NCBI GenBank assembly: GCA_958296165.1
Contig: OY282447.1
Location: 3,601,154-3,633,153 of the forward strand
Direction of reading: 5' to 3'
From: an uncultured Pseudomonadales bacterium
GTDB lineage: Bacteria; Pseudomonadota; Gammaproteobacteria; Pseudomonadales; Azotimanducaceae
DNA: 32,000 bases
In this document: positions 1 through 29,948 of the stretch, piece by piece
How the letters are laid out: each line of letters opens with the position of its first letter
Numbering within the stretch: the first letter of the stretch is position 1
Made by a program: the position numbers and the translations under genes
Notes under the pieces: generated by a model
Seen by the model: the letters and a program-made list of their open reading frames with translations, nothing else
Told to the model about the DNA's origin: nothing
Databases searched by the model: none

Positions 1-1
1 C

Positions 2-988
2 ACTAAGACGTTCCTCGAATCGCTACAGCCCTACAACTCTACGGGCAAACTCAAGAACTTCCGGCAAGATGTGGCGGACGTAACGGCGCATCGCGTTGGC
101 TTCGATGCGCTGGCGACAATCCGTTCGGTGGCCGCCCTGTGCGCCGACCTTGGCCCGGTGGCGTCCTACCTTTCCACCGCCGAAGCGGGGCTGCCGGATG
201 GCGGCGAGTGGGCAGCGTGGACCGCGAAAGTACGAGCGGCTCGAGACGACATCCTCGCTCAGCTCGGCGATTCGCAGGCGCGGACGAAAGCCACATTTCG
301 GCAGCGCACTATGCGCCGTCTGGCCGAACTCAAAGCCGAGTATGTGCGCGACTATTTGGCGCGGCACACCAACGCGCGGCTGGGGGTGGACGGGGACAGG
401 CGCAAGGCAAAGCTCTTGGGCGATCAGCGCTTGACTGCTCTGAAGCGTCTGACGGCCATCGACTTGATGCCCCGGCAGCATCTTGAGAACAGTATGCGTC
501 GCATCGTTGACGTTGCGAGCTGTTTCGCGCTGACCGAGCAGGAAATGCGAGCAGCGCCACTATGCACCCACTGCGGCTTCAAGCCGGGCGCCACATCTGG
601 CGCGTCCGCGGACGCTGTATTGCATGCCTTCGACGACGAGTTGGACACCTTGACAGACACATGGACGCAAACGTTGCTGGCGAACTTGGAGGATTCAACC
701 GCCAAGGAAAGCGTGGAGTTGCTGGAACCGGAAGCCGCCAAGTTGGTGGCGGAGTTCACTCGTGCCGGCGAACTGCCGAATCAAGTACAAGACGATTTCG
801 TGCAGGCGTTGAAGGACGCCCTCTCTGGCTTGGAGAAGGTGCTGGTGACTGCCGATGCGCTCCGCGACGCGCTGCTCGCCGGCGGCACCGCCGCCACGCC
901 GGAAGAATTGAAGCTGCGGTTCGGGCGATTCGTAGACGATTTGGCGAAGGGTGCGCCACCTGGCCGGGCGCGGCTGGTGGTGGAGTGA
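2..988 (+). CDS. 3' part of a large protein in the BREX BrxC/PglY position (DUF6079-like); 5' end lies outside the window
   Basis: The frame is open from nt 2 ([20 protein letters not shown] precedes the GTG at 71 used by the ORF track). Contains a CTHCGFKPG Cys motif and a helical acidic tail; stop TGA 986-988. Sits directly upstream of the methyltransferase and PglZ genes. Family assignment is from memory of BREX-3 loci. Confidence 0.55.
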
Positions 989-992
989 CGGC

Positions 993-2996
993 GTGACACG
1001 GGAAGAACTGACGGCGCTGCTGAAGTCACACGAGTGGCGCGACGTGGAGTTCAAGGAAGCACAGAGGGCGGTGCCGAGCAGAGCTTACGAGACAGTGTCC
1101 GCGTTCGCCAACACCGAAGGCGGCCATCTCGTGTTCGGCGTTCGGCAGAACGGGCAAGACATCGAGATCGTTGGCGTTCTGGATGTAGATAAGGTGCAGA
1201 ACGAGTTCCTTAGTGCTTTGCGGCAGAAGGACAAGATCAGCCTAGTGATGGAGGTTGGGGAAGAACTGCATAACCTTCAGGGCGCGGACCTGCTCATTTT
1301 CCATGTGCCGGAAGTTCACCGTTCGGATAAGCCCGTCTATCTGAATCGCGACATTCGCCGCTCATTCGTTCGTAGCGGCGGCAGCAACGTGCGCTGCTCC
1401 GAGAGTGAGCGCAATCGGTTTCTGATGGACGCCGCCATCGAGCGCTATGACGGGCAGGCATTGGAACTCAATCTGCAAACGGCTTTCGATGCGGAGAGCA
1501 TCAAGTGGTATCGGGCCATGTATGAAGGCCAACCGGGGAATCGTTCCTACGCCTCACTCTCCGATGAGGACTTTCTTGAGCAGATGGGTCTGTTGGTGGA
1601 GTATGCCGGTGATCGGCTGCCCACTCGGGCGGCGATTCTCCTGTTTGGCACCAACCCAAAGTTCCGGCAATTGTTGTCGCGCCCCGTGGTGGACTGCCAA
1701 CGATACCGTTCCCGCAGAGAGATGGCTGATACCGGCGAGCGCTGGTTTGATCGTTTGGTGCTCGAGGAGAACCTGATCCGCACTTGGCGCGCCTTGATGG
1801 ACGATTGGTACAGCAAGGTCGCCGAGCACCCCTTCGGCGTGGATGCGGCGACACTACAACGCAATGACACGCCACCTGACAACCTCGCATACCGCGAAGC
1901 GACGGTAAACATGGTGGTGCATCAGGACTACGCCGAGCAGGGACGTAAAGCCGTGATTCGCCACTATCCCGATCAGACGGTGTTCTGGAATCCCGGCGAT
2001 GCGTTTGCTACGGACATTGATCTTCTGGAGCCCGGCGAGAAGGAGGTACGCAATCCAAAGCTTGCCTTGGCGTTTCGTCGCATCGGCCTCAGCGAGAACG
2101 CCGGCTGGGGCCTGCGAGACGTGTTTCGCAACTGGCAGCAGTTGGGGAACGTGCCGCCGAGCATAGCTAATGACAAGCAAAGCAAGAGCTTCGAGCTTGC
2201 CTTGGTGAAGGAGGAGCTGGTTTCCGAGCAGCAGCTTGCACGTCAAGCCAGCATGGGCTTGCGGCTGACGGATGCGCAAACCCGAGCCTTTGCTTTCGCG
2301 TGCCGCGAGCGAGAAGTGGGGCTTGTGCAGATCAAAGTGGTGACCGACTTGCCCCGGCCGGAAGCCGTAGCGGTGGCGACTGAACTTGTGGAGCAGGCGT
2401 TGCTTGAGGAGGCCCGCCCTGGCTACTACAGGCTCGCCGCCCACTTACGGGAACAGCTTGCAGCGACTGACCAAGTAGCACCGGCAATGCCTGACTTAGT
2501 CACTGATCCAACAGGCCGGCCTAAAGCGGACTTGGTCACTGACGGAGGTGACCAAGTGGACATCGGCAACATGTCCACTGCACAAGTAGCGCAGAGGCCG
2601 GACCTCATGTCCACTGAACATGTCCAGGCCGGCATAGACACTGACCAAGTAACACCAGCAAAACCGGACTTGACCACTGACCAAGTAAGCCGGCCTAAGA
2701 CCGACTTAGCCACTGACCAAGTTTTCGAGTTAAGTGACCAACAGCGCCGGATCATGGCTGCGTGCGACACGTCCAAGAGTTTAACTGAATTGATGGCCTT
2801 GACAGGCCTGAAGCACCGCTCGTTCTTCCGCAGCCGCCACCTGAAGCCCTTGTTGGCTGCCAACATCGTCCGCATGACCAATCCCAACCACCCCAACGCG
2901 GCCAACCAGCGCTACATTCTTACTGAGGCCGGGCTCAAGCTAAGGGCGATGCACTTGGAAACGAGGCCAGAAGAAGGACAGCATGGCCAAGGCTGA
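993..2996 (+). CDS. AlbA_2/Schlafen-like divergent-AAA protein with C-terminal winged-helix tail (putative regulator or sensor)
   Basis: N-terminus HEWRDVEFKEAQRAVPSRAYETVSAFANTEGGHLVFGV matches the AlbA_2 (PF04326) motif. C-terminus LTELMALTGLKHRSFFRSRHLKPLL..MTNPNHPNAANQRYILTEAGL is the wHTH tail typical of this family, preceded by degenerate TDQV linker repeats. The likely start is GTG 993 (GGAG at 982-985, just after the upstream stop) rather than ATG 951 of the ORF track. Confidence 0.75.
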   Translation: MTREELTALLKSHEWRDVEFKEAQRAVPSRAYETVSAFANTEGGHLVFGVRQNGQDIEIVGVLDVDKVQNEFLSALRQKDKISLVMEVGEELHNLQGADLLIFHVPEVHRSDKPVYLNRDIRRSFVRSGGSNVRCSESERNRFLMDAAIERYDGQALELNLQTAFDAESIKWYRAMYEGQPGNRSYASLSDEDFLEQMGLLVEYAGDRLPTRAAILLFGTNPKFRQLLSRPVVDCQRYRSRREMADTGERWFDRLVLEENLIRTWRALMDDWYSKVAEHPFGVDAATLQRNDTPPDNLAYREATVNMVVHQDYAEQGRKAVIRHYPDQTVFWNPGDAFATDIDLLEPGEKEVRNPKLALAFRRIGLSENAGWGLRDVFRNWQQLGNVPPSIANDKQSKSFELALVKEELVSEQQLARQASMGLRLTDAQTRAFAFACREREVGLVQIKVVTDLPRPEAVAVATELVEQALLEEARPGYYRLAAHLREQLAATDQVAPAMPDLVTDPTGRPKADLVTDGGDQVDIGNMSTAQVAQRPDLMSTEHVQAGIDTDQVTPAKPDLTTDQVSRPKTDLATDQVFELSDQQRRIMAACDTSKSLTELMALTGLKHRSFFRSRHLKPLLAANIVRMTNPNHPNAANQRYILTEAGLKLRAMHLETRPEEGQHGQG

Positions 2997-5760
2997 CCCG
3001 AACGCCGACTTGATGCCCAACACCGCCGAGACTGGTGATGCCGGACCCGTCGAATGTTTGGGCATGAAGTTCGAATCCGACGACGCCCGCCGAGACCACT
3101 TCCTCGCTCGCCTCAAGGAGCTGCTCCCAGAACTGCGGCAGCGCCACGACTTCCCCATCGGCGAGGACGAGGACATCCTGCGCCTCTCCGACCCACCGTA
3201 CTACACGGCCTGCCCCAACCCGTTTCTGGCCGAGTTCGTACAACACCACGGCAAGCCCTACGACCCCAACGAGCCGTACCACCGAGAACCCTTCGCCGTG
3301 GACGTGAGCGTGGGCAAGACCGACCCGCTCTACAAAGCGCACGGCTATCACACCAAGGTGCCCCACAAGGCCATCGTGCCTTCCATCCTGCACTACACCG
3401 AGCCGGGCGACATCGTGCTCGATGGCTTCTGCGGTTCCGGCATGACCGGCGTCGCCGCGCAATGGTGCGGCACCGCTCCGACAGCGTACCGCTTGGAGCT
3501 TGAGCAGCAATGGGCGAAGGAAGGGCGCGATCCGCCGAAGTGGGGAGCGCGTAGGGCGATCCTAGGCGACCTCTCGCCGGCTGCCACCTTCATCGCTGCC
3601 AACTACAACATCCCGTTCGACGTGGAGGCCTTCACGGAGGCTGCGCAGAAGCTTCTAGACGACGTAGAGGAAGAGATCGGCTGGATGTACGAGACGCTGC
3701 ATACCGATGGGAAGACGAAGGGGCGGATTAACTACACCGTGTGGAGCGAGGTATTTACGTGTCCGGAGTGTGCAGGCGAGATTGTTTTCTTCGACGAAGC
3801 CTTCAGCCGCACAGACAAGAAAATCTCGTCTACTATCACATGTCCGCTTTGTGACGCCATTTCTGTGAAGGAGAAACTAATTCTTCAAATCACATCTATC
3901 TACGATGAAGTAACAGCTAGCGTAGTCCAGATACCACGCCGCGTGCCGTCAATGGTCGACTACACCGTAAACAACGTTAAGCACCAAAAGAATCCAGATG
4001 TATATGATCTGGACATGCTGTCGAAAATAGGCAACTTGGACATCCCGGCAACCGTCCCTCGGTCAGCGTTGCCAGACTGCCAAATGACCAGAGTAGGTCG
4101 TATGCGGACAACTAGTACTTCCTTTGTACACCAGATGTTCCTGCCAAGGGCGGCACACGCAATGTCTGCGTTGTGGCGTGGAGCTCTGCGTGAGAGGAGT
4201 AGTCGTAGGAGAAACGCATTGCTCTTCTTTGTGGAACAGGGGATCGCTGGCATGTCTATCCTAAACCGGTACGGCCCGTCCCACTACTCACAGGTCAATC
4301 GGCAGCTATCTGGAGTGTACTACGTCAGCTCGTTGGTGTCGGAGTGTTCTCCGCGGTACAACTTAGGAGGCCGACTATCTCGGCTACCGAAAGCGTTTAT
4401 GTCAATGGACTCTGCCCAAAAAACATCCACCATCTCTACGATGGAGTGTGGACAACTGGCCGTCCCAGCGCATTCCATTGACTATATCTTTACAGATCCA
4501 CCATTCGGCGAGAACATCTATTATGCGGACCTAAACTACCTCGTCGAGTCGTGGCACAAGGTACATGGCCAAGCTGATTTGGAATCAATTGTCGACAGAG
4601 TCAGAGGGAAGGATATAGCCGCGTACAGTTCCTCAATGGAACTTGGCTTCCGCGAATACTGCCGCGTATTGAAGCCTGGAAGGTGGATGACCGTCGTCTT
4701 TCACAACTCAAGGAACGCAATCTGGAACGCAATTCAGGAGGCTGTTCTCAGGGCGGGATTCGTCGTCGCTGACGTCCGCATGCTGGATAAAGGGCAAGGG
4801 TCCTTTAAGCAAGTGACCAGCAACGCCGTCAAGCGCGATCTAGTTATCTCAGCCTACAAACCTAACGGCGGCCTAGAAGATCGATTCGGCTTGGCTGCCG
4901 GAACAACAGCCGGGGTCTGGGATTTCGTTCGGTCTCATCTGCTTCGACTACCAGTGATTGTTACGAAGGCTGGCGTCGTCGAGCCGGTCGCAGAGCGGCG
5001 AGATCATCTCCTGTTTGACCGCATGGTCGCATTCCACGTTCTACGAGGTGCCACAGTTCCGTTTTCTGCGGCTGAGTTCTACGAGAGCCTCGCCCAACGC
5101 TTCCCCGAACGCGACCGCATGTATTTCCTCCCCGAGCAAGTCGTAGAGTACGACCGCGGTCGCGCAGCCGCGGGCCAGGTGGTCCAGCTAGAACTCTTCG
5201 TCAAGGACGAGGAAAGCGCCATCCAGTGGCTCCGTCAACAGCTAGACGCCAAACCACAGACCTACCAAGACATCCACCCGCACTACATCAAGGAGCTCGC
5301 CGGCTGGGCCAAGCACGAAAAGATGCTGGAACTGGCGACTCTCCTAAGAGAAAACTTCCTCCACTACAACGGCCGGGGCGAAGTCCCGTCCCAGCTGCAC
5401 GCCTACCTCTCAACCAACTACAAGGACCTCCGCAAGCTCCCCAAGGACGCCCCAACCCTCCGCGCCAAGGCGAAGGACCGCTGGTACGTCCCAGACCCCC
5501 ACAAAGCCGGCGACCTAGAGAAGCTCCGCGAACGCACCCTCCTCCGCGAGTTCAAGGAATACCAAGACGCCGAACACCGCCGCCTCAAGCTCTTCCGCCT
5601 AGAAGCCATCCGCGCCGGCTTCCGCCGCGCGTGGCAAGCAAGCGACTACGCTACAATTGTCGAGGTTGCCGCCAGAATCCCCGACAACGTCCTGCAGGAA
5701 GACCCAAAGCTGCTGATGTGGTTTGATCAAGCACAAATGCGCACTGGGGGTCGGCCTTGA
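2983..5760 (+). CDS. pglXI: Site-specific DNA methyltransferase, PF01555-like (N6A/N4C class), PglXI-like by context
   Basis: 925-aa ORF with AAGGA 4 nt upstream of ATG 2983. AdoMet motif VLDGFCGSGMTGVAA and catalytic TDPPFGENIYY, with a Zn-ribbon CPECAGE...CPLCD between them. Basic tail RWYVPDPHKAGDLEKLRE. Lies between the BrxC-like and PglZ genes, as PglXI does in type 3 BREX. Confidence 0.8.
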   Translation: MAKADPNADLMPNTAETGDAGPVECLGMKFESDDARRDHFLARLKELLPELRQRHDFPIGEDEDILRLSDPPYYTACPNPFLAEFVQHHGKPYDPNEPYHREPFAVDVSVGKTDPLYKAHGYHTKVPHKAIVPSILHYTEPGDIVLDGFCGSGMTGVAAQWCGTAPTAYRLELEQQWAKEGRDPPKWGARRAILGDLSPAATFIAANYNIPFDVEAFTEAAQKLLDDVEEEIGWMYETLHTDGKTKGRINYTVWSEVFTCPECAGEIVFFDEAFSRTDKKISSTITCPLCDAISVKEKLILQITSIYDEVTASVVQIPRRVPSMVDYTVNNVKHQKNPDVYDLDMLSKIGNLDIPATVPRSALPDCQMTRVGRMRTTSTSFVHQMFLPRAAHAMSALWRGALRERSSRRRNALLFFVEQGIAGMSILNRYGPSHYSQVNRQLSGVYYVSSLVSECSPRYNLGGRLSRLPKAFMSMDSAQKTSTISTMECGQLAVPAHSIDYIFTDPPFGENIYYADLNYLVESWHKVHGQADLESIVDRVRGKDIAAYSSSMELGFREYCRVLKPGRWMTVVFHNSRNAIWNAIQEAVLRAGFVVADVRMLDKGQGSFKQVTSNAVKRDLVISAYKPNGGLEDRFGLAAGTTAGVWDFVRSHLLRLPVIVTKAGVVEPVAERRDHLLFDRMVAFHVLRGATVPFSAAEFYESLAQRFPERDRMYFLPEQVVEYDRGRAAAGQVVQLELFVKDEESAIQWLRQQLDAKPQTYQDIHPHYIKELAGWAKHEKMLELATLLRENFLHYNGRGEVPSQLHAYLSTNYKDLRKLPKDAPTLRAKAKDRWYVPDPHKAGDLEKLRERTLLREFKEYQDAEHRRLKLFRLEAIRAGFRRAWQASDYATIVEVAARIPDNVLQEDPKLLMWFDQAQMRTGGRP

Positions 5761-7106
5761 ATCGGAAGCACAAGCACATCGTCCGAGCGGGACCATACGA
5801 GGCCTCATTCCCACAAGAACCTGAGGTAGATGATCTCTGTGATCACATCGAGCCGTGGCTATCGGCACTGTTTCAAGCGGAACACCTGAATCTACTGGTA
5901 GGAACCGGGCTAACGACAGCGATTGCGGGCGTCGCCGGAGCAAAGGCCCCGGAGATGGCGCCAACCATTATCAAGGATGTGGAGTACGCAAGGTCCGTGA
6001 CCAAGGTCGCCGCAGAGAGCGCACGCCGACTAGGGCGAGGTGAACCCAACTTGGAGGACCAGCTAAGAGCAATTGGACAGCTAACTGAAGGCTTGAACGT
6101 ACTGGCAAGTGATCCCGAAGCGGATGAGGATCATACCTTCCGCCAGTTGTACGAAAAATGGAAAACCAAACAGGAGCATGTGCTGCGATCACTCCTAGCC
6201 AGCGTGCTTTCGACCGAGCGCGAGATCGATCAAGCGCTAGCAGAGGATGACGCCACAGGTAAAGCTGATCGGGTTAGGAGGTGTCTCGGTGGATTTCTGT
6301 TGCCGTTTGCTAGTCGCGTCGCTACGAGGGAGCGGCTGCATATCTTCACGACGAACTATGACCGATTAATAGAGTTCAGTTGTGATCTATTGGGGCTACG
6401 GACTATCGATAGGTTCGTTGGCAGTTTGTTTCCCGTCTTCCGTGCGACTCGATTGGACTTCGATATGCACTACAATCCCCCAGGAATTCGTGGTGAACCT
6501 CGGTACCTCGAGGGCGTAGTGAGACTCACCAAACTGCATGGCTCACTGGATTGGCGAGTGAGCGATGAACACTCTGGTTATACGGAAGTGTGGCGGTGTG
6601 GCCTTCCTTTCGGAGCGCCAGACGACCACCCAGTCGCTGAGAAGCCTCTCAACCGTGAACTACTCGTCTATCCGAATTCGGCGAAGGACGTCGAGACGTT
6701 AGAGTATCCATATGCTGAGCTCTTCCGCGATTTCGCCGCAGCAACTTGCCAGCCCAATACCGTAGTCGTTACCTACGGATATGGTTTTGGCGACGACCAC
6801 CTAAACCGCATCTTGCTTGATATGCTGAGCATTCCGTCTACCCATCTTGCGGTGATATCCTACGATGACGCTGACGGCCGCTTGTGGTCGTTTTGCGACC
6901 GTGCTGCACGCGATACTCAAATCACTCTGCTTGTTGGAGACCACTTCGGAGACCTTTCTACGCTAACAAATCACTACCTACCTAGGCCGGCAATCGACAG
7001 GACCACGTGGCGTATGGTGGATCTGCAAAATAGGCGCGGTAGAACGGCTCAAGATATGCCTAGTGCGGCCGAGAGCGGTGGCCCTACGGAAGAAGACTTC
7101 GAATGA
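5757..7106 (+). CDS. SIR2-like (SIR2_2/PF13289-type) protein, partner of HerA
   Basis: Motifs LNLLVGTGLTTAIAG, LHIFTTNYDRLIEF, LTKLHGSLDWRV and GYGFGDDHLNRIL match the defence-type SIR2_2 pattern. TTG 5757 is the only in-frame start before the first motif and overlaps the pglXI stop (TTGA). GGGGG lies at 5746-5750. Confidence 0.75.
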   Translation: MNRKHKHIVRAGPYEASFPQEPEVDDLCDHIEPWLSALFQAEHLNLLVGTGLTTAIAGVAGAKAPEMAPTIIKDVEYARSVTKVAAESARRLGRGEPNLEDQLRAIGQLTEGLNVLASDPEADEDHTFRQLYEKWKTKQEHVLRSLLASVLSTEREIDQALAEDDATGKADRVRRCLGGFLLPFASRVATRERLHIFTTNYDRLIEFSCDLLGLRTIDRFVGSLFPVFRATRLDFDMHYNPPGIRGEPRYLEGVVRLTKLHGSLDWRVSDEHSGYTEVWRCGLPFGAPDDHPVAEKPLNRELLVYPNSAKDVETLEYPYAELFRDFAAATCQPNTVVVTYGYGFGDDHLNRILLDMLSIPSTHLAVISYDDADGRLWSFCDRAARDTQITLLVGDHFGDLSTLTNHYLPRPAIDRTTWRMVDLQNRRGRTAQDMPSAAESGGPTEEDFE

Positions 7107-9204
7107 CCTCATTGATCGAGGCACTCGGTGGCCGGGCCATAGGGAGAGTTGACTATGTGTCCGCTGAACGAATCGTGGTACTTCTCGAGTCTGACGCGCC
7201 CCAAGCGGTCGCGCTCAACACTGGAACCCCAGTCGGATTCCCACGCATCAATACCTACGCACTAATTCGCAGTGAGAATGGCTATATCGCCTGTATCATT
7301 TCTTCCGTGCGCACGGCACGACTACCTTACGCTAAGAGGGGAGCCACACACCAGGACTTTGACATAGTCGATCTACCATTTCCGTCCCGGCTGATGGAAC
7401 TAGTGCCCATTGGCACCTTGAAATCTACGTCGATGGATGGAGATATCGCATTTCGAATTCAACGTGGTGTCGATACTTTCCCTTCGGTCGGAGATGCTGT
7501 CGTGCTTCCCAACGCCAATCAACGAAGGGCGCTGGTGGCTGGAGATGCCGGAAATCAAGGTGGACGTGTTCTTATTGGTCGCTGCCCGACGGCGGAGATG
7601 GCGCCCGTGTACGCGGATCCGGACAAGCTGTTTGGTCGACATCTCGCTATCCTAGGCAACACTGGATCTGGCAAATCGTGCTCGGTGGCAGGTCTTATAC
7701 GATGGTCCCTCGAAAGTGCTAGGCGTCATCGGGAGAAGAAACGTCGCGATCCAATGCCTAATGCCCGATTCATCGTACTTGACCCGAACGGAGAGTACAG
7801 TGCGACGTTCAAGGATCAGGAAGCCCGTATTTTTCGGGTGGAACCTGACGTGGGCGAAAGGCATCTGCAAGTGCCAGCATGGTTGTGGAATGGTGAAGAG
7901 TGGACGGCTTTTACGGGTGCCGCACCCGGGGTACAGCGTCCGGTCCTATTGCAAGCAATTAGGCGACTACGCAACACAGAAGGACCTCCAGATGCATTTG
8001 AGACGAAGGTCAGGGTACGAGTAAAGCAATATAGGGATCAGTTAGATGTGGCTATACAAAGCGGTGACCATCAGCGCCGAGGATACCGTGAGGGAGTCGC
8101 AGCAGTTCTTCTGAATATCAAGGCTGATTTTGAAGGTTTGAACGACGATAGGAGCTGTGGTGATGAGAGCCTCCGGGGGATTCTCTCCGACGTTTCTAAC
8201 TCTGCCGGTCGAATTGAGATGGACGCACGCCAGCAGTCAAATCCTGGGTATCATGATCCGTTCTCCCACATGGCTATAGAAGAGGTAATTCATTGCCTTG
8301 AAAAGGTTGGGGATGCTGTTGGAATAGCCGATAGACAGGGCCAGCTGAGTGAAGATACTCCCTACGAATTTATGGTGGAGCAGCTTCCAGCATACGTCGA
8401 AGCTCTCGCCGCCGCGCAGGCCGGCCGTGACATGGCGCCGTTTATCGACTCGATGAATCTTCGTATCAAGGGAATCTTGGCGGATGGTCGGCTCTCATCA
8501 ATACTTCGGCCTGCTACCTCGCCTCCCATTTCATTAGGTGGATGGTTGAAGGAGTATGTTGGTGGTGACCAGGCGGCGAATGGCCCGATAGCTGTGTTGG
8601 ATCTTTCACTCGTGCCGTCAGAGGTCATTCATGTGGTTGTGAGCGTCTTAGCAAGGATGATCTTTGAGGCAGCTCAGAGGTACCGCCGGAAGGAAGGCCA
8701 CAATCTGCCAACCACATTGGTTCTGGAAGAGGCGCACACATTTGTGCATCGTGACTTGTCCACCGAATCGGCGACTCCCGCAGGACGAGCTTGTGCGAGG
8801 ATTTTTGAGAAAATTGCGAGAGAGGGCGTAAATTCGGTCTCGGGTTAGTCTTGGCGTCACAAAGACCGTCAGAGATGGCACCTACAGTGCTCTCGCAGTG
8901 CAATACCTTTCTATTACACCGCTTGGTCAACGACCGTGACCAAGAGCTAGTTAGACGCCTTGTTCCTGATGGCTTGGCGTCTCTGTTACGTGAACTACCT
9001 AGCCTCCCAACCCGACGCGCAATGCTACTAGGTTGGGCGGCTCCGGCACCGACTCTTGTGGAGATTCGACGGGTCTCAGAGGAACATAGGCCCCGATCTC
9101 CAGACCCTGACTTTTGGGACGTCTGGACGGGAGAGAAGGAGCGTTCAATAGATTGGGTCAAAATCGCTCAAGAGTGGCAAGCGCCGAGAGAGCCGTGGTC
9201 GTGA
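7103..9204 (+). pseudogene. herA: HerA/DUF87-type ATPase split by a 1-nt frameshift near 8827 (ORFs 7103-8848 and 8851-9204)
   Basis: ATG 7103 overlaps the SIR2 stop (ATGA). Walker A is LAILGNTGSGKSCS and Walker B is TLVLEEAHTF. Frame 1 ends ...FEKIAREG-VNSVSG-stop. Frame 2, open from 8809, continues RKFGLGLVLASQRPSEMAPTVLSQCNTFLLHRLVNDRDQE, the canonical HerA continuation. Confidence 0.8.
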
Positions 9205-9325
9205 GTGAGGGGCGCGTGGGGATAGCAGAGATGGTTTCATCGATCTACGGTACTCGGACTAGCTGGTTTTAGAGAGCGTTTAGTTGACATGTTGATATCC
9301 CCCCGTGGGTGGTAGAGTCTTAGCG

Positions 9326-9643
9326 ATGCGTGCGGTAGAGGATGTGCAATTGAGCCGGTTTAAGAAGCCCTCGGTGGCGGTTCCAGACCGTGATGGTGAG
9401 AGCGACAACGAGGGCGTAGCAACAGCGTTGGCGAGGTCTGTGACAGACATTGATTCGGATTGGCGCGAGCGGATAGAACTCGCGAAACGCGCTTACGAAG
9501 ACGGCAAGGAGTTGCGCGAAGGCAAGCCAATCACCTTCCGAGTGGCCCGGCCCTTGATTCTCGGCGATGGATCGAACGCCTACGTCGGGAATGTCCCGCC
9601 TGCTGCGGCACTGCGAACGCCATGCCGGAAGTACCAGTCTTGA
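9326..9643 (+). CDS. Hypothetical small protein (uncertain)
   Basis: 105 aa from ATG 9326 (MRAVEDVQLSRFKK...RERIELAKRAYEDGKELREGKPITFRV). The composition looks protein-like, but there is no recognisable motif and it overlaps the tail of the opposite-strand fragment. Confidence 0.3.
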   Translation: MRAVEDVQLSRFKKPSVAVPDRDGESDNEGVATALARSVTDIDSDWRERIELAKRAYEDGKELREGKPITFRVARPLILGDGSNAYVGNVPPAAALRTPCRKYQS

Positions 9644-9687
9644 GCGTCCGCATAATGCTGTCGGCCTTGCAAGTCGTCGGCTGCCAT

Positions 9688-10014
9688 CTACTCGTCAAGG
9701 GCGCGATTGCACGCGATCGCCGCCGGGGCTGGGCAAGGATCGGGCCAAGGAAAGCGCTCCTCGTGCAGCAACGCCGCCCAGTTGGTCGCGAGCCAGTCCA
9801 AGAATGGCGCTAGATACCAGCCGACAAAGGGCTGTTGCTGTTCACCTAGCCTAGTCGCCGTGACGTTTACGCCTGCCACATGCATCGTCAACTGTCCCAT
9901 AGACCAGCCGTAGGCGGCTGGTCGCCGCTCGGGCGGCTCGCAATCATCAACCCAGCGAATGCCAATCTGCACGGTCGCAGGGTCACCGAAGCGCATCCAA
10001 TCGGGCATCGCCAC
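9688..10014 (-). CDS. Hypothetical protein, probably the decayed 5' part of a larger gene
   Basis: 108-aa ORF (MAMPDWMRFGDPATVQIGIRWVDD...GWYLAPFLDWLATNWAALLHEERFPWP). The reading continues plausibly past an in-frame TAG (9690-9688) as MAADDLQGRQHYADAQDWYFRHGVRSAAAGGTFPT, up to a second TAG at 9582-9580. Confidence 0.4.
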   Translation of the reverse strand: MAMPDWMRFGDPATVQIGIRWVDDCEPPERRPAAYGWSMGQLTMHVAGVNVTATRLGEQQQPFVGWYLAPFLDWLATNWAALLHEERFPWPDPCPAPAAIACNRALDE

Positions 10015-10330
10015 TTCCTATCGCCCACCAACGTCGTCCGTGTTTATCGCTCGTCGTGTCTTGCGCGGCGTCACGTAGCCTCCTCGAGCAAGAACATAGC
10101 GGACGGTCGCAACATATCGTCTAAGGCGTAGGATACCAGTGCGAGGTGCCTCCTTATTCGAGGCTCGGGGCTCCGCACCCGATCGCGTTGGCAAGTAAAT
10201 GTCCTCTAACCGTAGTGCTAGGTGCTCCGAGTGGGAAGAGTAAATGTCCGTTGGCTCGTACAGTAGGGCGTCTGCGCCCGGTCACGAGCGTTGGGCACCG
10301 TAGCACCAATGCTGCATTCAGGGCTCCTTG

Positions 10331-12307
10331 ATGCCTGCCGCTAGTTGGCAAGACGCCATCCTCAGCGAGTTCACGCCCGGCGTCTCGCCGCTCACCGTAG
10401 TGGCAGACCCGGATGGCCTGCTGCAAGATGACGAAATCCTTGCCACTCTACAGAAACGCGGGTTCTCCCTCCTCCGGTTCGAGGACCCCATCGCCTTCCG
10501 CTATGCCTACGAGTCGCGCTACCGCCGGCGTGAAGCACAGGCGGATGCGGAGGGCCTTGTCGTCTTGGTGCCGGCACCACCAGCCGAACTGGACAACCTG
10601 CCCCACGACATCCTCACCCGCAGCCGGCGCCTAGCGTTCAGCCTTGCCGAGCTGTTCCCCAGCCTGAACCAAGCCGTGGTGTCGGCGCTGGAACCGGCGG
10701 ATCGTGCCGCGCTCTACGAGGCGGCGTCCCTCCAGCAGCCAGCGGCCTTGGGGGAGAAGGCCAGCAAGGATTTCGTGCTGCATCACGTCTTCGGCGTCGT
10801 CCCGGACCTGTTGCGAACGCCGGCTGCGCTGCTGTCCGTGCTTCTTCGCCGGCACTATGCCGGTCGGCGCGTTCCACCGGCGTTGGATGCGCGGTTCATC
10901 GAAGCGATCAAGGAGCGTTTCCAACATTGGCCGCTTGGCCGCATCGTGCCGGATCGGGAAGCGTTCTTCGATTTTCTGCAGCAGCGTTGGCGGATGTTTC
11001 TGGATGCGAGAGCGGAAGGCACAGGGGCCGTTAGGGAGGGCACCGATGCCCTCGCTAGCGTGCTGCCTTTCGATCATAAGGATGTGCGCGTTTACATAGA
11101 CAACCTGTTCGCGGAAGGTCTTCTGCACCCCATCTCCCACTGGCAGGCGGCCACGCTGAGCAAAACGTGGCTTGGCGTCGGCGTTCAGTGGGATGCTCGG
11201 CAAGATGCCGCCGCCCGGCTGGATCGGCTGCTCGCCATCGCTGCGGAGTCGCTGCCGGAACAGGAAGCCCGGCATCAGGATTGGTTTCGATTCGCCAAAG
11301 TGTGGGCTAGGGTCGCAGCACTCACGCAAGAGCCCGACGGCAAGCCAAACGAGAAACAACAGCAAGCAGTAGACGGCTTGCGAACGCGCATGGACGCAGC
11401 GTTCAACCGCTGGGTGGCAAGCCGCTACGCGAGCCTCGCCAGCTTGCCGCCGAACCCGCCGGTGATGCTGCACCACGTCCCGCGCTTCCTCGCACGGGAG
11501 ATCGGCGACGACACAACGACGAAAGCCGCACTGGTGGTTGTGGACGGGCTGGCTCTGGATCAATGGGCTGTCATGCGGCAGCAACTCGCCCAACAGCGCC
11601 CCGGCTGGCGGTTTCGGGAAGACGCCGCGTTCGCTTGGGTGCCCACGATCACGTCCGTTTCCCGCCAAGCCATCTTCGCCGGCAGCCCGCCGTTCTACTT
11701 TCCGAACAGCATCCACGCCACGCACAAAGAGGACATGCTGTGGCGAAGGTTCTGGACGGATCAGGGAATACAAGGCGCCGTCTACGCGAGAAGCCTCGGC
11801 GATGGCCCTTTCGAGGACGTGGCCGCGCTCGTTGACCAGCCCAACGTTCGTGTGGCCGGCTTGGTGGTAGACAAGGTGGATCGCATCATGCACGGCATGA
11901 CGCTTGGCACAGCAGGCATGCACAATCAAGTGCGGCAATGGGCGTCGCAAGGGCATTTCGCGGCACTGCTAGACCTGCTGTTCGCGCATGGGTTCCGCGT
12001 CTACATCACGTCGGACCACGGCAACGTTGAGGCCGCAGGTTGTGGACGGCCAAACGAAGGTGCGGTGGCGGACGTGCGCGGCGAACGGGTGCGCGTGTAC
12101 TCCGAAGAAGGCTTGCGCCGCAGCGTTGCCGATCGCTTCGCCGGTGCGTGGTCGTGGCCGGCGGAAGGTTTGCCAGCAGGCCATCTGCCCCTGCTCGCGC
12201 CCGGCCGCAAGGCATTCGTGCGCGAAGGTGAAAGGGTGGTGGCGCATGGGGGCGTGTGCATTGAGGAACTCATCGTGCCGTTCGTGCAGGTGGTTGCGGG
12301 CATATGA
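10331..12307 (+). CDS. pglZ: PglZ-domain alkaline-phosphatase-superfamily protein (BREX)
   Basis: ALVVVDGLALDQW, VPTITSVSRQAIFAGSPP and ITSDHGNVEA are PglZ/alkaline-phosphatase core motifs. About 658 aa. ATG 10331 is preferred over the TTG at 10328. Confidence 0.85.
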   Translation: MPAASWQDAILSEFTPGVSPLTVVADPDGLLQDDEILATLQKRGFSLLRFEDPIAFRYAYESRYRRREAQADAEGLVVLVPAPPAELDNLPHDILTRSRRLAFSLAELFPSLNQAVVSALEPADRAALYEAASLQQPAALGEKASKDFVLHHVFGVVPDLLRTPAALLSVLLRRHYAGRRVPPALDARFIEAIKERFQHWPLGRIVPDREAFFDFLQQRWRMFLDARAEGTGAVREGTDALASVLPFDHKDVRVYIDNLFAEGLLHPISHWQAATLSKTWLGVGVQWDARQDAAARLDRLLAIAAESLPEQEARHQDWFRFAKVWARVAALTQEPDGKPNEKQQQAVDGLRTRMDAAFNRWVASRYASLASLPPNPPVMLHHVPRFLAREIGDDTTTKAALVVVDGLALDQWAVMRQQLAQQRPGWRFREDAAFAWVPTITSVSRQAIFAGSPPFYFPNSIHATHKEDMLWRRFWTDQGIQGAVYARSLGDGPFEDVAALVDQPNVRVAGLVVDKVDRIMHGMTLGTAGMHNQVRQWASQGHFAALLDLLFAHGFRVYITSDHGNVEAAGCGRPNEGAVADVRGERVRVYSEEGLRRSVADRFAGAWSWPAEGLPAGHLPLLAPGRKAFVREGERVVAHGGVCIEELIVPFVQVVAGI

Positions 12308-13053
12308 ACGAGAGAGCCAGCCAAGTCGGCGTCAGCCAGCGCCTCCGCTTGGAGTGGCTGGAAGCCACCGCCAACCTGATGCTGGCTGGCAATGACGTCG
12401 CCGTCATTCGAGACGCTCTGGACGACATGCTGGCAAGCAAGCTTTCCGTCGGGAGCGGCAGCGAGCGAGGCAGCCGGCAGAAGACGATCACCATCTTGAC
12501 GAAGATTTGGCGCAACGTGCCGCCGGACGTTAAACCGTTGCGCAACGATGCGTTGCAGATGCTGCCGGCGTTGAACCTGAACCATCGCCACGCCGTTCAT
12601 TGGGGCATGACGCTGGCCGTCTACCCGTTCTGGGGCATGGTGGCCGCTCACACTGGCGGATTGCTGCGCTTGCAGGGCACCGCTGCCGCAGCCCAGGTTC
12701 AGCGCCGCATCCGAGAACAATACGGCGAGCGGCAGACGGTCTCCCGAGCCGCAGCGCGCGTCTTGCGATCGTTCATCGACTGGGGCGTGTTGGCGGACGC
12801 GGACGGGAAGGGGCTCTATGTACGAGGGAGGCAACGTGAACTGGGAGATGCGAGAGTTGCTGCTTGGTTGGCGGAGGCCATGCTGCGCTCGGGGCCGCTA
12901 GTGCGCGGCTCAGCCAGCCCCCTACGCCACCCCACGTTGTTCCCGTATCGCCTGCCGCACTTGGCCGCCTCGCAGTTGGCCACGCACTCTTGCCGCCTTG
13001 ATGTGCTGCGCCAAGGGCTGGACGAAGAAGTGCTGATGTTGCGGCGCAAATAG
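12304..13053 (+). CDS. Small BREX accessory protein in the BrxA position (BrxA/BrxE-like, name uncertain)
   Basis: 249-aa ORF. Its ATG 12304 overlaps the pglZ stop (ATGA), so it is translationally coupled. The terminal position matches brxA of type 3 BREX. No motif I can verify by eye. Confidence 0.55.
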   Translation: MNERASQVGVSQRLRLEWLEATANLMLAGNDVAVIRDALDDMLASKLSVGSGSERGSRQKTITILTKIWRNVPPDVKPLRNDALQMLPALNLNHRHAVHWGMTLAVYPFWGMVAAHTGGLLRLQGTAAAAQVQRRIREQYGERQTVSRAAARVLRSFIDWGVLADADGKGLYVRGRQRELGDARVAAWLAEAMLRSGPLVRGSASPLRHPTLFPYRLPHLAASQLATHSCRLDVLRQGLDEEVLMLRRK

Positions 13054-13313
13054 CCCGTTGCCTGATCTGCGCGTTCACCGACGTGCATGAACGGGAAGGC
13101 GGAAGCTCGGTACTCGAACAGCGGTTTCCGCAGCCGCTACGGTTAGTCGTCCGCCGGCGGCAGATGAACGTGGAGCAATCACAGGCCGTGACTTACCACA
13201 AGGAGTACCGATGGTCCCACTGTCGTCTTGATGGGATGGTCCGCCCCGCTTCATTCGCGCGGGCCTCGGAGGCCAGAATAACGTGGGTTTCCCATCAACC
13301 AACGGAGCGAACC

Positions 13314-13693: not shown

Positions 13694-14296
13694 CCCGTGC
13701 CCGCCATCCCGCCATCGCCAAGCGAGTTCGGGTTGAACCCGGCTGCGCCGTGCAACTCGATGCGCTGCCGACGCTGCCCGAACTCGCCGCCTTGCGGCGC
13801 CGCAAACTGCGCGACCTGCTGACGCGGCGTGCCCGATGGCGCGGTCGAGCCGGGCATCGTCCCATTCCAACCCGGCGAAGCGGACGATCGCAACCGCCCG
13901 CCAGCGTCGCACTTCCTCATCCGGTCAATCCCCTCTTCCTGGTTGTTTGTCAGGGTCTGTTTTCGTGTCGCATGGGGGTCAGTTTTGCATGTCGCCTAAC
14001 AAAGCGGCGCCGAAACTCGCCGGTGATGCGTCCGTCGACGTCGTGCCTGACGCCGGTCATCCGCCGCATCTTCGGCGCCCGGCTCGTGACGGGACCGACA
14101 GCGACCGAACAGTTCGATTGGGTACTACCACGCAAAAAATCAGCCGGCGCGATCTGGCCGAGATAGACCTATGCCCAACACGATGACAGCTATCGGCGCG
14201 TGGAGGTCGCACACAGTGTGACGGTCGCCGGAGCGGCAACTATGATAGGTTAGTCATCAAGGTAGGGGATGCGGTCCACGAGGATCGTGAGCGAGC

Positions 14297-16600
14297 ATGC
14301 TGGACAGGCTTGTCCATTCGATTAGGCGCATCGTGTGTCGGCTGTGGCATACGGTGAAGCCCTCAGCTCCGGCACCTACCGCTTCCGTGTCCCTTACGCC
14401 GCGATCTGACATGCCGGCGACCACCGCGGCTACCGAAGTCACGACAGACAGTGACGAGGCGACCCCACCGGCCCGAACCCAACCAGATCAAGGAAACGCC
14501 CTGCGTGAAACGCATGAGCAACCCGACCATGTCCGGCCGGCTGCGATTTCGGGTGGGGGCGCGCTCCTATTGGCAGAAGACGCACTTGGGACGTCGGATT
14601 CGCATCCCGCCAGTCCCGTCCAAGCTCCCCCGGGCCATACTAGTCACGTCGATAGCTTATCACGGCCGACCCCCGCTGACCGGGCGAAGAATCTTGAACC
14701 TGTCCAGAACGACATCTCGGACGAGCGGTCTGAACGCTCGCACGGACAACCGAAGCGGCGACTCAAACCCGTTGAGATGGGAGGTCAGCGGGCAGAGAGA
14801 ACGGACGGCCAAGCACCAACTCGGCGAGAACCGCAGGCCGCCCGCGCGGAGCTAACTTGCCGCAAGAACGCCGAGCTCCACCAATGGGAGCTCGTTCTAT
14901 CTGTTGGTGGTGAAAGCAGCGTTAAGGACGTACAGCACGATGGGAGGACGTTGGACTTGGCGACCGGAGAACACGCCCTCTCATCTTTCTGCAGCAATGT
15001 CACGGTCGTTTTCGCCAGCGGCGAGCGGAAGGAGATTACGTTAGAGGACAAAGGCGAACCACTCGTTTTCAAGCTGAAGAATTGGAAAGGAGACGGTCGA
15101 AAAGTCAAAGGTATCGGTGTGGGGCACTATATCGTCATCGCACCAAGGGCTTACAAGCGCACCGGGCGTGTGCCTGTCGAACAAGAGGCTTGCACAGATC
15201 CAAACTTCACCGCCCACTACTTCCTCAGCGACGGAAAGTCGCCGCACGAAATCGGTGGCTTTCGAGAGCGTGACGTGCCATCGACGCAGTCCGTCATTGA
15301 ACTGACGGGCAAGATCGCGTTCGATGACTCAGAACACGGCGATCTGTTTGTCGGTGATGCTCCAAGCCTGATGCACTCGAACGGCATTGTCTGGGCGCGG
15401 GTTGGCGAGGAGGGCGGTTGGAGGGGCGAGAGCTTCAAGACGAACAAGCGCGATGTCGGCACGGTTCTGGGTAGCCGCCAAGGACGGTTTTTTGTCCGTG
15501 TATACGATGCTGACATGGAACTGCTGGACAGCGACCAGTTCAGATATCTGCGTGATCTCGAGGAGATTCTCGTGAATGGAAAGCCATACTCCGAAGACCT
15601 ATTGCTCGTTCCTACAACTGCTGGACATCTGCCGACCGAGGTGCGATTCATCGGTGTCGACGGTGCCAACGTTCATCCAGTATTGTCGCCTGAAGCCAAA
15701 CGAACGAACGTTAGAGGTACGAGTGTTCTGGCCGATCCCCATCCGGATGCCGATCGCATATCATGTAAAATAGAGGCCGACACGGGTAGCGTCGACGTTG
15801 TATTGGCTCTACCACGCGTTTGGTGGCACATTGCACAAGAAGACATGGATGCCTTCGAGTGGAGCGATGTGCCGACTGTCATGACGCGCCAGGAGTTCTG
15901 CAATCGCGGTTACGACGGCGTAGCCATGCGACTGCGAGCTCCACGCCGAATCAAGTCGGTACGCGTCGGCTTCGACGACCAACATGATCGCAGCTATCCC
16001 TTGAAACTCGGGGAGATAAACGGTCTGATTCCACTGCTCGACTTTGTCAACTACCCGCAGATCGATCAACGTCTGAGTGAGGATGCATCACTCGACATTG
16101 AGTGCGATGGAGTCACAGCGACCGTCATCCGCATTGCCGCCGACCCTATACCTGCTATCACTTCCTTCGTGTGCGAACCCGCAAAGACCGTCGCTGGGGA
16201 GCCAACCACATTGCGTTGGGAGGCCCGTAACGCCAGTGAGGCCAGAGTTGTCATCAACCGCAGTCCCCAAGTCGGTACTCTTGAATCGAACGGGAGCCTA
16301 GAAGTTCGACCGTTGAAGACCACGACCTACACGCTGGCACTCATCGTGCCCGGCGTCCCCGACGTGACGAAGGCCGTCACGGCGACGGTGTTGTCTTTGG
16401 TCGAGACCGAGAGCCGATACGCTCGCGTAAAGTGCCTCGGTGGATGGAGGCGCGGCAAAGGATTCAGCCGCCGCGAACTTGAGGCAGCTGGCTTGACGAC
16501 CGCCGATGCCAACCGTCGGTCGATCTTCATTGACGGACGGCGTAGAAGCATGCATCGGGAAAATGTCGAGACCATCGGGAGGAGGTCGGTCAATGGCTGA
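14297..16600 (+). CDS. Unknown 767-aa partner of the DUF1998 helicase (disordered N-terminus, beta-rich core, Ig-like module, eL13-like basic tail)
   Basis: Single long ORF whose stop overlaps the helicase start (ATGGCTGA). The first ~190 aa are Pro/Thr/Asp/Arg-rich, and an alternative start exists at ATG 14777. The Ig-like stretch is ITSFVCEPAKTVAGEPTTLRWEARNASEARVV..TTTYTLALI. The tail is GKGFSRRELEAAGL..IFIDGRRRSMHRENVETI. Confidence 0.7.
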   Translation: MLDRLVHSIRRIVCRLWHTVKPSAPAPTASVSLTPRSDMPATTAATEVTTDSDEATPPARTQPDQGNALRETHEQPDHVRPAAISGGGALLLAEDALGTSDSHPASPVQAPPGHTSHVDSLSRPTPADRAKNLEPVQNDISDERSERSHGQPKRRLKPVEMGGQRAERTDGQAPTRREPQAARAELTCRKNAELHQWELVLSVGGESSVKDVQHDGRTLDLATGEHALSSFCSNVTVVFASGERKEITLEDKGEPLVFKLKNWKGDGRKVKGIGVGHYIVIAPRAYKRTGRVPVEQEACTDPNFTAHYFLSDGKSPHEIGGFRERDVPSTQSVIELTGKIAFDDSEHGDLFVGDAPSLMHSNGIVWARVGEEGGWRGESFKTNKRDVGTVLGSRQGRFFVRVYDADMELLDSDQFRYLRDLEEILVNGKPYSEDLLLVPTTAGHLPTEVRFIGVDGANVHPVLSPEAKRTNVRGTSVLADPHPDADRISCKIEADTGSVDVVLALPRVWWHIAQEDMDAFEWSDVPTVMTRQEFCNRGYDGVAMRLRAPRRIKSVRVGFDDQHDRSYPLKLGEINGLIPLLDFVNYPQIDQRLSEDASLDIECDGVTATVIRIAADPIPAITSFVCEPAKTVAGEPTTLRWEARNASEARVVINRSPQVGTLESNGSLEVRPLKTTTYTLALIVPGVPDVTKAVTATVLSLVETESRYARVKCLGGWRRGKGFSRRELEAAGLTTADANRRSIFIDGRRRSMHRENVETIGRRSVNG
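16577..16585 (+). promoter_or_regulatory. Shine-Dalgarno sequence for the helicase gene
   Basis: GGGAGGAGG lies 7 nt upstream of ATG 16593, inside the 3' end of the upstream ORF. Confidence 0.6.
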
Positions 16601-22210: not shown

Positions 22211-22879
22211 TCACCCGGGCCTTGGCGCTTCGCCCTGGGACACCGCGACGTGCCGGCGCTTCGATCCCTTCACGCCGCGCTCCAGTCCGAACGGTTCGCC
22301 GACATGCGCGAAAACATCGTCCTGCATCCGCGAGACCGCCGCGCCGACGACCGCCCGGCTCATCGACGCGCGCTTGCGCCCGGACAGCTCGGCGTCCATC
22401 GCCCGGCGCACCGCCGACATGCCCCATTGCAGTTTGCCGTCCTCGACGGCGGCGGGGATCGTCGTGACGTGGACGTGCCATTGGGTCTCGTCGAGGTGCA
22501 GCGCGGCGTCCGTGATCCACGAGTCCGGCATCCGCAGCTCGCACCACGCCAGGCAGGCCTTGCCCCACTCGCGGGCCTTGTCGACGGACCAGCCCTCGCC
22601 GATCCGCTTCGCCCCGACGAACAGGAACTCGGCGTGGGGTTTGGGCTTCGTACCCCGGCGTCTCGCCAGGTCCTTCTTCCTGCGGGCCATGATGTTCGCC
22701 AGCTCGTCGTCGGGTAGAGTCGGCGCCAGGGACTCCACCGAGAGCGTCTCGCCGGCGGGGGATTGCATCTTCGGAAAGGCGTCGGTGACGGGGGAGCGGA
22801 CCTCTCCGCGCACGTGCATCCGGCGACGTGTCGAAGCGGAGGCGGAGACGCGCTCGAACCGGTGCAGCAGAGTGGGCAT
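22211..22879 (-). CDS. MobV/Pre-type relaxase (plasmid recombination enzyme family), possibly frameshifted at its 3' end
   Basis: AALHLDETQWHVHVTTIP carries the HxDExxxHxH motif, and FGLERGVKGSKRRH matches the conserved l.RG..gS...H motif. A coiled-coil-like continuation (KARVKEASLIERRAARIMKKAEVREKAV) sits in another frame at 22041-22230. Confidence 0.65.
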   Translation of the reverse strand: MPTLLHRFERVSASASTRRRMHVRGEVRSPVTDAFPKMQSPAGETLSVESLAPTLPDDELANIMARRKKDLARRRGTKPKPHAEFLFVGAKRIGEGWSVDKAREWGKACLAWCELRMPDSWITDAALHLDETQWHVHVTTIPAAVEDGKLQWGMSAVRRAMDAELSGRKRASMSRAVVGAAVSRMQDDVFAHVGEPFGLERGVKGSKRRHVAVSQGEAPRPG

Positions 22880-28639: not shown

Positions 28640-29178
28640 CGGAACGCACGCGCCAATATGCCTTGACGGGAGCGCGGTTCGCCAAGGAGCCTCTCGCGTT
28701 CCTTGCGGCCACCTCCGCCAGACGGCGAATCCGCCCTGTCGAGCGGCTACGAGAAGCTGAACCCGCAGACCGAGCAGCTGGGCTTGCAGGTGCCGTCGCA
28801 ACACGATCGCGGCGCCACGAGACGGGGCCTGGGGTCGCTGACGCTTCGGTCGATCGAGTCGGTCGCCGTCGTGCGGGGTTGTCCACGCTTTGTCCACGGC
28901 TCCGTCCCGATTGAACTGGAGCGGGACTTCGCAGACTAATGGCCTGCCGAGAACGAGCGTACGGGAACTGGTATCGGGGTGCGCGTCGGTGCCGATAGTG
29001 CCTTCGGCGGGTACAAGGTGGGCATGGCCGTGGGAAGCCCGCGAAGTGTCCCGCTCACGGGGGACGACCGTTCGCAATTGCGTACGACGTGCTGGACCTC
29101 ACGCTGCCCGTGCGACCTCGATCCCCTTCCCTGCCTGCACAACGACTCGATCCGCGCCCATTGCGCGTCGCTCGGCAT
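28640..29178 (-). mobile_element. Decayed IS5-family (DUF4096-type N-terminus) transposase pseudogene
   Basis: MPSDAQWARIESL..GRGSRSHGQREVQHVV..LRGLP resembles the remembered IS5-group N-terminus (MxDxQWxxIEPLLP..GRPR......WRxLP). The remainder is spread over several frames. Confidence 0.4.
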
Positions 29179-29263
29179 CCAACGGTCAGCCCGCATCGCC
29201 ATCTTTTGCCTCCTTGCGTCTTCCGCTCCCTCCATGGGCACTTTTCGACCCGAATTGTCGCGC

Positions 29264-29791: not shown

Positions 29792-29948
29792 GGATATAGT
29801 CCTCGTGTTTGTTGGGCATATGAATATACATGCAGGTGCCTCTGCCGGCCAGCGTCAAATCTATCTGGGGTGTGCGACGTTCTGTGTGCCAGCCGTCAGG
29901 CGGCAATTGGCGGCGGCTTGTGCCGATGGCGCCATAGGTCGTCGTTAA

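Follow-up and report, generated by a model that had tools for sequence, protein, structure and literature searches.

A SIR2-HerA pair as probable embedded second-line cargo in a type 3 BREX operon lacking BrxHII

The window analysed here is a 32,000-nucleotide (nt) stretch of contig OY282447.1 from an uncultured Pseudomonadales bacterium, and its first 13,053 nt are taken up by a bacteriophage exclusion (BREX) operon of type 3, a class reportedly described by Goldfarb and colleagues in 2015. Between the methyltransferase gene pglXI and pglZ, where a canonical operon of this type would carry the helicase gene brxHII, the window has a SIR2 gene followed by herA. The question raised by the locus is whether this pair takes the place of the helicase in a hybrid BREX machine, or whether it is a separate defence system nested within the operon, both of which had been put forward in the first-pass annotation. 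From comparison with related loci we favour the second answer, with a probability of about 0.8: the SIR2-HerA pair would be an embedded second-line system, occupying a cargo slot with fast turnover in a type 3 BREX operon that lacks BrxHII.

We assigned gene families by scanning the open reading frames (ORFs) of the window with hidden Markov models (HMMs) from Pfam and PADLOC. These scans upheld the PglZ, PglXI and BrxC calls of the first-pass annotation, every assignment being very strong, and its gene order and ORF coordinates were borne out. Reading along the + strand from 1 to 13053, the C-terminus of BrxC is followed by a Schlafen/AlbA_2 protein, PglXI, SIR2 and HerA and then, past some 1.1 kb of leftover DNA, by PglZ and BrxA, the last of these having previously been listed as an ORF of 249 amino acids (aa).

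1-988 (ORF from 2), + strand: brxC, C-terminal 328 codons (Pfam DUF6079, 8e-83; PADLOC BrxC, 3.7e-95)
951-2996, + strand: accessory gene with SLFN_AlbA_2, HATPase_c_4 and winged helix-turn-helix (wHTH; Fic-like_C) domains (Pfam)
2983-5760, + strand: pglXI (BrxXI), N6-adenine methyltransferase (PADLOC PglXI, E=0, model positions 5-918 of 919; PF01555)
5757-7106, + strand: SIR2, NADase-type (PADLOC PDLC04079, 2.9e-165; PF13289)
7103-9204, + strand: herA, frameshifted, the deposited ORF ending at 8848 (PADLOC PDLC04098, 8e-178; PF01935)
10328-12307, + strand: pglZ (PADLOC PglZ, 3.3e-259; PF08665)
12304-13053, + strand: brxA (PADLOC BrxA, 2.6e-88, full length)

The window begins within brxC, the fragment matching positions 918-1238 of the 1238 in the DUF6079 model. 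With a DUF6079-type BrxC, PglXI, and PglZ followed by BrxA, the operon has the components expected of type 3 BREX, except for the Swi2/Snf2 helicase BrxHII between pglXI and pglZ. The first-pass annotation had remarked that no superfamily 2 helicase lies in that interval. This holds: neither tblastn with 28 BrxHII proteins nor an HMM built from them detected a BrxHII/SNF2 helicase at any position of the 32 kb. For comparison we fetched 79 genome loci carrying a PglXI relative (48-70% identity), of which 52 contain both pglXI and pglZ. The protein of ~930-1000 aa encoded directly upstream of pglZ in relatives is BrxHII (PADLOC E=0), and its gene is present in 30 of the 52 loci and missing from the other 22. 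Across type 3 systems generally, BrxHII has been found in 77%, leaving 23% without it (PMC12839542). The backbone clade of the window, which includes the loci that we number L001 and L160, is without brxHII whether or not SIR2-HerA is there. The window belongs to a type 3 BREX sub-lineage that lost BrxHII, and the helicase would appear to be dispensable across the whole of that sub-lineage.

The interval between pglXI and pglZ behaves in these relatives as a slot for cargo. Its length varies from 6 bp to 8.9 kb among the 52 loci; in four of them pglXI runs almost directly into pglZ, while the contents elsewhere include, besides BrxHII, Gabija, Ppl, HEC-01, an Nsn-like ATPase, a reverse transcriptase, extra copies of PglXI and AlbA_2 genes. 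Cargo longer than 800 bp is carried by 26 of the 30 loci with brxHII and by 18 of the 22 without it (Fisher p=0.71 over the 52 loci), and loss of the helicase is therefore unrelated to the presence of cargo. The first-pass annotation had proposed looking for the pglXI-SIR2-herA arrangement in other genomes, and SIR2-herA does recur right after pglXI in eight other loci, two from the genome scan (L014, L021) and six (L080, L082, L085, L088, L094, L107) from a set of 80 metagenomic SIR2 relatives. The three that are readable past herA with the helicase retained (L021, L082, L088) have the order pglXI-SIR2-herA-brxHII-pglZ-brxA. The presence of brxHII after herA in these loci indicates that the pair was added at the pglXI/brxHII junction and is no substitute for the helicase. 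Within this set, only the window and L014 are without brxHII.

A finer view of the slot comes from three sister BREX backbones (L160, L163 and L164), all from one metagenome (ERZ19489113), which were found by protein searches. Nucleotide identity to the window is 84-91% in matched stretches for L160, 95-96% over 9587-13059 for L163 and 94% over pglZ-brxA for L164; at single genes, the part of brxC that lies in the window has 90% aa identity to L160, and pglZ has 94-96% nt identity to L163 and L164. None of the three carries brxHII or SIR2-HerA, and the same is true of L001. In L160 and L163 the slot holds a PD-Lambda-5_A-like gene of 381 aa and another gene of 314 aa, and the opposite strand has a C5 DNA methylase and an intact 239-244-aa gene; in L164 it holds PDC-M11A/B, and the opposite strand has a Drt8 reverse transcriptase and two more genes. 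Blastn similarity to the window ends at position 5732 in all three sisters, 28 nt ahead of the pglXI stop and directly past a conserved ...DPKLLMWFDQA motif, and restarts at 9587 (L160, L163) or 10330 (L164).

5733-9586, + strand: lineage-specific cargo segment that is not homologous to the sisters L160, L163 and L164 (blastn)

The G+C content of SIR2-herA is 54%, compared with 64% for pglZ and brxA. The simplest reading of these breakpoints is a cassette exchange at a fixed left boundary, and as to its direction we infer that SIR2-HerA overwrote part of an earlier cargo. Near-identical backbones from one community, with different cargo in one slot, would then provide a natural example of defence islands being built from within, and the 3' end of pglXI could be a convenient starting point in searches for new defence cassettes.

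The DNA between herA and pglZ had been described in the first-pass annotation as a 1.1-kb scar. Leftover DNA is indeed present there, but it is not a blank scar: the stretch 9205-10327 is mosaic in make-up, one of its pieces being a truncated pseudogene on the minus strand.

9205-9586, no strand assigned: spacer of mixed origin, with no family or Rfam match
9587-10014, - strand: pseudogene, N-terminal ~140 codons of a 225-244-aa protein family (89% identity to family member P0001)

Within the spacer, the 169 nt of 9376-9544 have 76% blastn identity to the region of a 77-aa ORF that precedes pglZ in L164. The pseudogene has an in-frame stop and a 3' truncation, and its intact counterpart of 239-244 aa is paired with a PF00145 C5 DNA methylase in L160 and L163. 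We rejected the idea that the leftover DNA is a decayed brxHII, as nothing was found in 9100-10400 by tblastn with 153 slot proteins or with the HMM of 28 BrxHII proteins, and likewise the idea that it is an insertion sequence (IS) or a miniature inverted-repeat transposable element, inverted repeats being absent. A weak tblastx match to the transposase region of L024 was unsupported by protein alignment, and a search for structured RNA gave no Rfam match at gathering thresholds across the 32 kb. Separately, L163 holds at its positions 14755-15248 a second copy of the N-terminal part of the 239-244-aa family (84% nt identity to window 9587-10079, in opposite orientation). This copy overlaps with the beginning of a Peptidase_M78 gene (ImmA/IrrE, CapP-like; 499 aa), and the domain is apparently common to both proteins.

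The junctions of the pair are tight. The SIR2 start overlaps the pglXI stop (TTGA, 5757-5760), the herA start overlaps the SIR2 stop (ATGA, 7103-7106), and TTG 5757 is the sole start codon from the upstream in-frame stop to the conserved SIR2 N-terminus, all as the first-pass annotation had it; in alignments, this TTG falls on the ATG of the homologues in L014 and L021. The start of brxA and the stop of pglZ also share 4 nt. Embedding and coupling had been argued from the overlapping codons at pglXI. The pair is indeed embedded and the codons do overlap, but as an argument for functional fusion the observation fails, because overlap is general in this slot. Each of the nine BREX-embedded copies has its SIR2 start at -4 to +5 nt from the pglXI stop, and the slot as a whole is alike: the next gene starts no more than 20 nt from that stop in 46 of the 61 relatives with a co-directional next gene (a count inflated by choosing the nearest start codon), and the exact 4-nt overlap is found in 17 of the 61 irrespective of what the next gene is (a count that this choice does not inflate). 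Being generic for the gene after pglXI, the overlap supports operon expression and says nothing on functional fusion, and we rejected it as evidence for a hybrid. Co-orientation with pglXI and the overlap of its stop make it most likely that the pair is expressed from the BREX transcript. The first-pass annotation had also named, as grounds for refutation, that related loci might show SIR2-herA only as sporadic insertions, each having a promoter of its own; the pair is sporadic at the level of strains, but has no separate intergenic space for a promoter.

In characterised SIR2-HerA systems, HerA assembles and activates the SIR2 NADase upon infection. The catalytic motifs of the window SIR2 are conserved, with TTNYD, HGS and GFGDxH aligning with the solved SIR2-HerA structure 8j4u, whereas the adjacent herA is not intact. 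It has a 1-nt deletion at ~8825-8827, in the Gly codon at 8825-8826, within a short run of G or C (...GAG GG- CGT AAA TTC...), beyond which reading resumes in the shifted frame as far as 9204. The deposited ORF covers positions 1-566 of the 686 in the HerA model, and its 581-aa product is the form in the public record; once repaired, herA encodes 700 aa covering positions 1-684 of 686 (E=8e-252). The break falls in the ATPase core, where conservation with solved HerA structures is highest, and this copy of SIR2-HerA is therefore probably inactive, unless the assembly is in error: the frameshift could be a real mutation or a homopolymer assembly error.

Two other defence genes are interrupted as well. 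The BREX-embedded SIR2 of L014 reads TAG at 14104-14106 where the window reads TGG, 32 codons ahead of the ancestral stop that overlaps herA, and the codons past the TAG are still conserved, which points to a recent nonsense change. Elsewhere in the window, the candidate defence gene PDC-S68 (22968-26761, minus strand) is split into two overlapping ORFs, 25493-26761 matching model positions 5-389 and 22968-25547 matching positions 387-1218 of 1221. It is the second frameshifted defence gene of the window, and an intact copy lies directly after SIR2-HerA in L093 and L095.

How, then, might such a locus have arisen and how might it work? As we picture it, the operon would be (brxF)-brxC-Schlafen accessory-pglXI-(cargo)-pglZ-brxA, and the BREX system would methylate and restrict through BrxC, PglXI, PglZ and BrxA without BrxHII. 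The SIR2-HerA cassette would have entered by exchange at the fixed boundary within pglXI, close to its 3' end, and would have displaced an older cargo of which the truncated pseudogene and the mosaic spacer were left ahead of pglZ. Co-expressed from the BREX transcript, SIR2-HerA would be an autonomous abortive-infection cassette: when intact it would, going by what is known of the family, respond to infection by depleting NAD+, forming a second line of its own without being part of the BREX machinery; the copy in the window would probably be disabled by the herA frameshift, unless that is an assembly error.

The relatives of the pair outside BREX fit this picture. Those closest to the window SIR2 (67% and 65% identity) belong to free-standing pairs in unrelated neighbourhoods. 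Free-standing pairs occur in L161, L162, L083, L089 and L103, and BREX loci without SIR2-HerA include L160, L163, L164 and most of L001-L079. The subfamily is also a habitual passenger of restriction-like operons, in keeping with the embedded-defence pattern of Payne et al. (bioRxiv 10.1101/2024.01.29.577857). The free-standing homologues, those inside other restriction-like operons, the variable slot in relatives and the lower G+C of the pair than of the backbone together support the nested second-line interpretation that had been set beside the hybrid in the first-pass annotation. Two other observations weigh against it. In a crude neighbour-joining tree, the BREX-embedded copies lie among free copies but are confined to one half of the SIR2 subfamily, and the overlap with pglXI is kept in all nine of them across phyla; both would fit an association that is longer-standing and possibly functional. 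A consensus scan for a separate SIR2 or pglZ promoter gave sites no commoner than in shuffled sequence, and none at the relevant places. The first position of the window already lies in brxC, and it was only in the SIR2-bearing sister locus L014 that brxF and the BrxC N-terminus were observed; there, full-length BrxC and BrxF (3.5e-50) are encoded upstream.

Another way to view the pair is as a linked guard. In this case the SIR2-HerA lineage would ride in methylation and restriction operons, expressed with the methylase and nested but not independent, and would fire once phage anti-restriction proteins disable the host system. The half of the tree that holds the BREX-embedded copies also holds copies directly behind type IIG/DrmMI-like methyltransferases of 1345-1848 aa (L090, L092, L096, L097, L099, L105; L093, L095, L101), the first six with an ATGA or GTGA overlap, such that, within one clade, methyltransferase genes of two unrelated kinds have their stop overlapped by a SIR2 start, namely PglXI (nine loci) and type IIG/DrmMI-like (six). 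In L092, L096 and L097 an HKD-SNF2 helicase comes after SIR2-HerA; the resulting order of methylase, SIR2, HerA and helicase parallels that of type 3 BREX. Copies in the other half of the tree stand behind type III restriction enzymes, HmaA helicases, a PLD-helicase or OLD-like ATPases. Payne et al. have proposed the same guarding logic for PARIS and Gabija where these are embedded. If this were so, SIR2-HerA would typically be joined by a 4-nt stop-start overlap to the methylase or restriction gene ahead of it, and its dosage or activation would be tied to the host system. However, many members are free-standing, including the two closest to the window, and the tight junctions are generic for the slot. 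SIR2-HerA systems are also said to work alone (in studies by Gao and colleagues in 2020 and by Garb and colleagues in 2022), which we count against a guard. On balance we think it unlikely that this lineage is a specialised passenger of type 3 BREX, type IIG/DrmMI-plus-SNF2, type III restriction-modification (RM) and Hma operons, guarding against anti-restriction.

It is similarly doubtful that the whole locus is a non-functional remnant in a decaying island. Such decay would account for the missing brxHII, the herA frameshift, the truncated pseudogene before pglZ, the split PDC-S68 in the same window and the weak TTG start of SIR2. However, brxC (in its visible part), pglXI, SIR2, pglZ and brxA are uninterrupted and give full-length model matches, pglZ-brxA has 94-96% identity to its counterparts in sister loci, where the ORFs are intact, and BrxHII is in any case missing from nearly a quarter (23%) of type 3 systems (PMC12839542). 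Both frameshifts, moreover, could be long-read homopolymer errors, the source being a single 5.07-Mb contig.

The hybrid BREX, in which HerA as translocase in the BrxHII role and SIR2 as a new effector would form one integrated machine, is very improbable and already largely refuted by the comparative data: the pair does sit in the brxHII position with brxHII missing (in the window and L014), and a BRC composite with HerA/FtsK (PMC12839542) gives HerA-BREX combinations a precedent, but L021, L082 and L088 carry both pair and helicase, L160, L163, L164 and L001 carry neither, pglXI is followed directly by pglZ in four relatives, brxHII loss is uncorrelated with cargo, the nearest SIR2 relatives are free-standing and the window herA is frameshifted. 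The tempting interpretation of a new BREX hybrid, with a NADase in place of a helicase, is thereby removed.

Two further features of the backbone deserve mention. A homologue of the Schlafen/AlbA_2 accessory stands at the same position between brxC and pglXI in ~30 related loci, and its architecture in the window matches that of the Schlafen-histidine-kinase-wHTH accessory that has been linked to BREX in at least 1017 taxa (PMC12839542). The other lies within pglXI.

3786-4644, + strand: middle part of pglXI, with a target-recognition domain that was probably swapped (low G+C; blastn gap)

G+C is 50% in this segment against 59-63% in the remainder of the gene, and blastn finds no nt match for it in L160 or L163, whereas the flanks are 82-95% identical. 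A target-recognition domain is nested within the BrxXI core (PMC12839542), and it is probably this domain that was swapped; if so, the exchange would alter the methylated motif between close strains.

Downstream of the operon, 14297-20822 (+ strand) includes a DruE-like DEAD/Helicase_C/MrfA-Zn helicase of 1438 aa (PADLOC DruE, 1e-159), preceded by a 767-aa ORF with no match to DruH or other defence models and a weak C-terminal match to Ribosomal_L13e. The two may be an atypical Druantia-like pair, and are not conserved beside BREX in the sister loci. The island also bears traces of mobile elements, namely a fragment of Mob_Pre, a plasmid recombination enzyme (22211-22879, minus strand, 1.3e-10), and a 134-nt piece at 29106-29239 with 87% identity to part of L164 that is IS-related; as to a plasmid origin, the window had no megablast match in PLSDB. 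At ~29690-29800 there are three to four tandem 30-nt repeats, visible in ORF translations as MRLRRRDRLK on one strand and ACPGDGVAFS on the other.

Set against known systems, the window resembles type 3 BREX in having a DUF6079-type BrxC, PglXI, PglZ and BrxA in canonical order and orientation, with brxF seen in L014, and differs from the canonical form in having no BrxHII while carrying the Schlafen/AlbA_2 accessory and the SIR2-HerA cargo. The pair itself resembles the SIR2-HerA system, with SIR2 followed by HerA across an ATGA overlap and PADLOC models matched at full length once herA is repaired. Unlike known examples, it is embedded in BREX, has no intergenic space upstream and has a frameshifted herA; identity to the solved SIR2-HerA proteins (8j4u, 8su9) is low, and only the C-terminal core aligns. 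The BRC system, which consists of a DndH-like HerA/FtsK, PglZ, DUF6079, STAND and DUF4007 proteins, often GNAT or TGT, and no methyltransferase (PMC12839542), shares with the window the combination of DUF6079/BrxC-like, PglZ and BrxA-like proteins with a HerA/FtsK-type ATPase. In contrast to BRC, which adds STAND, GNAT and TGT and has neither PglXI nor SIR2, the window has both of the latter. Its HerA is matched best by the SIR2-HerA models and reaches DndH at just 1.7e-06 over a short stretch, and no GNAT or TGT match was found among the window ORFs scanned, such that the window does not qualify as BRC.

The closest parallel is with the embedded systems of Payne et al. (bioRxiv 10.1101/2024.01.29.577857), who describe defence systems lying within BREX, DISARM, type I RM and Hma, 96.7% of the embedded genes being co-oriented with the host system; one such example, for which the preprint cites Picton et al. 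2021, is BrxU in the BREX of pEFER. Like these, the cargo of the window lies between core genes (pglXI and pglZ) on the + strand and has homologues elsewhere, outside the host system, which itself also occurs without them. HEC-01 and PDC-M11, whose models are named from the same study, occupy the same slot in relatives of the window. In the available portions of the text and supplements of PMC12839542 and of the preprint, SIR2-HerA inside type 3 BREX is unmentioned. Beyond the parallel with Payne et al., strain-level breakpoints and the leftovers of earlier cargo can be seen here. The nesting of defence systems in BREX is already established, and what is useful in this locus is its fixed breakpoint, the visible leftovers of its cargo and a type 3 lineage without BrxHII.

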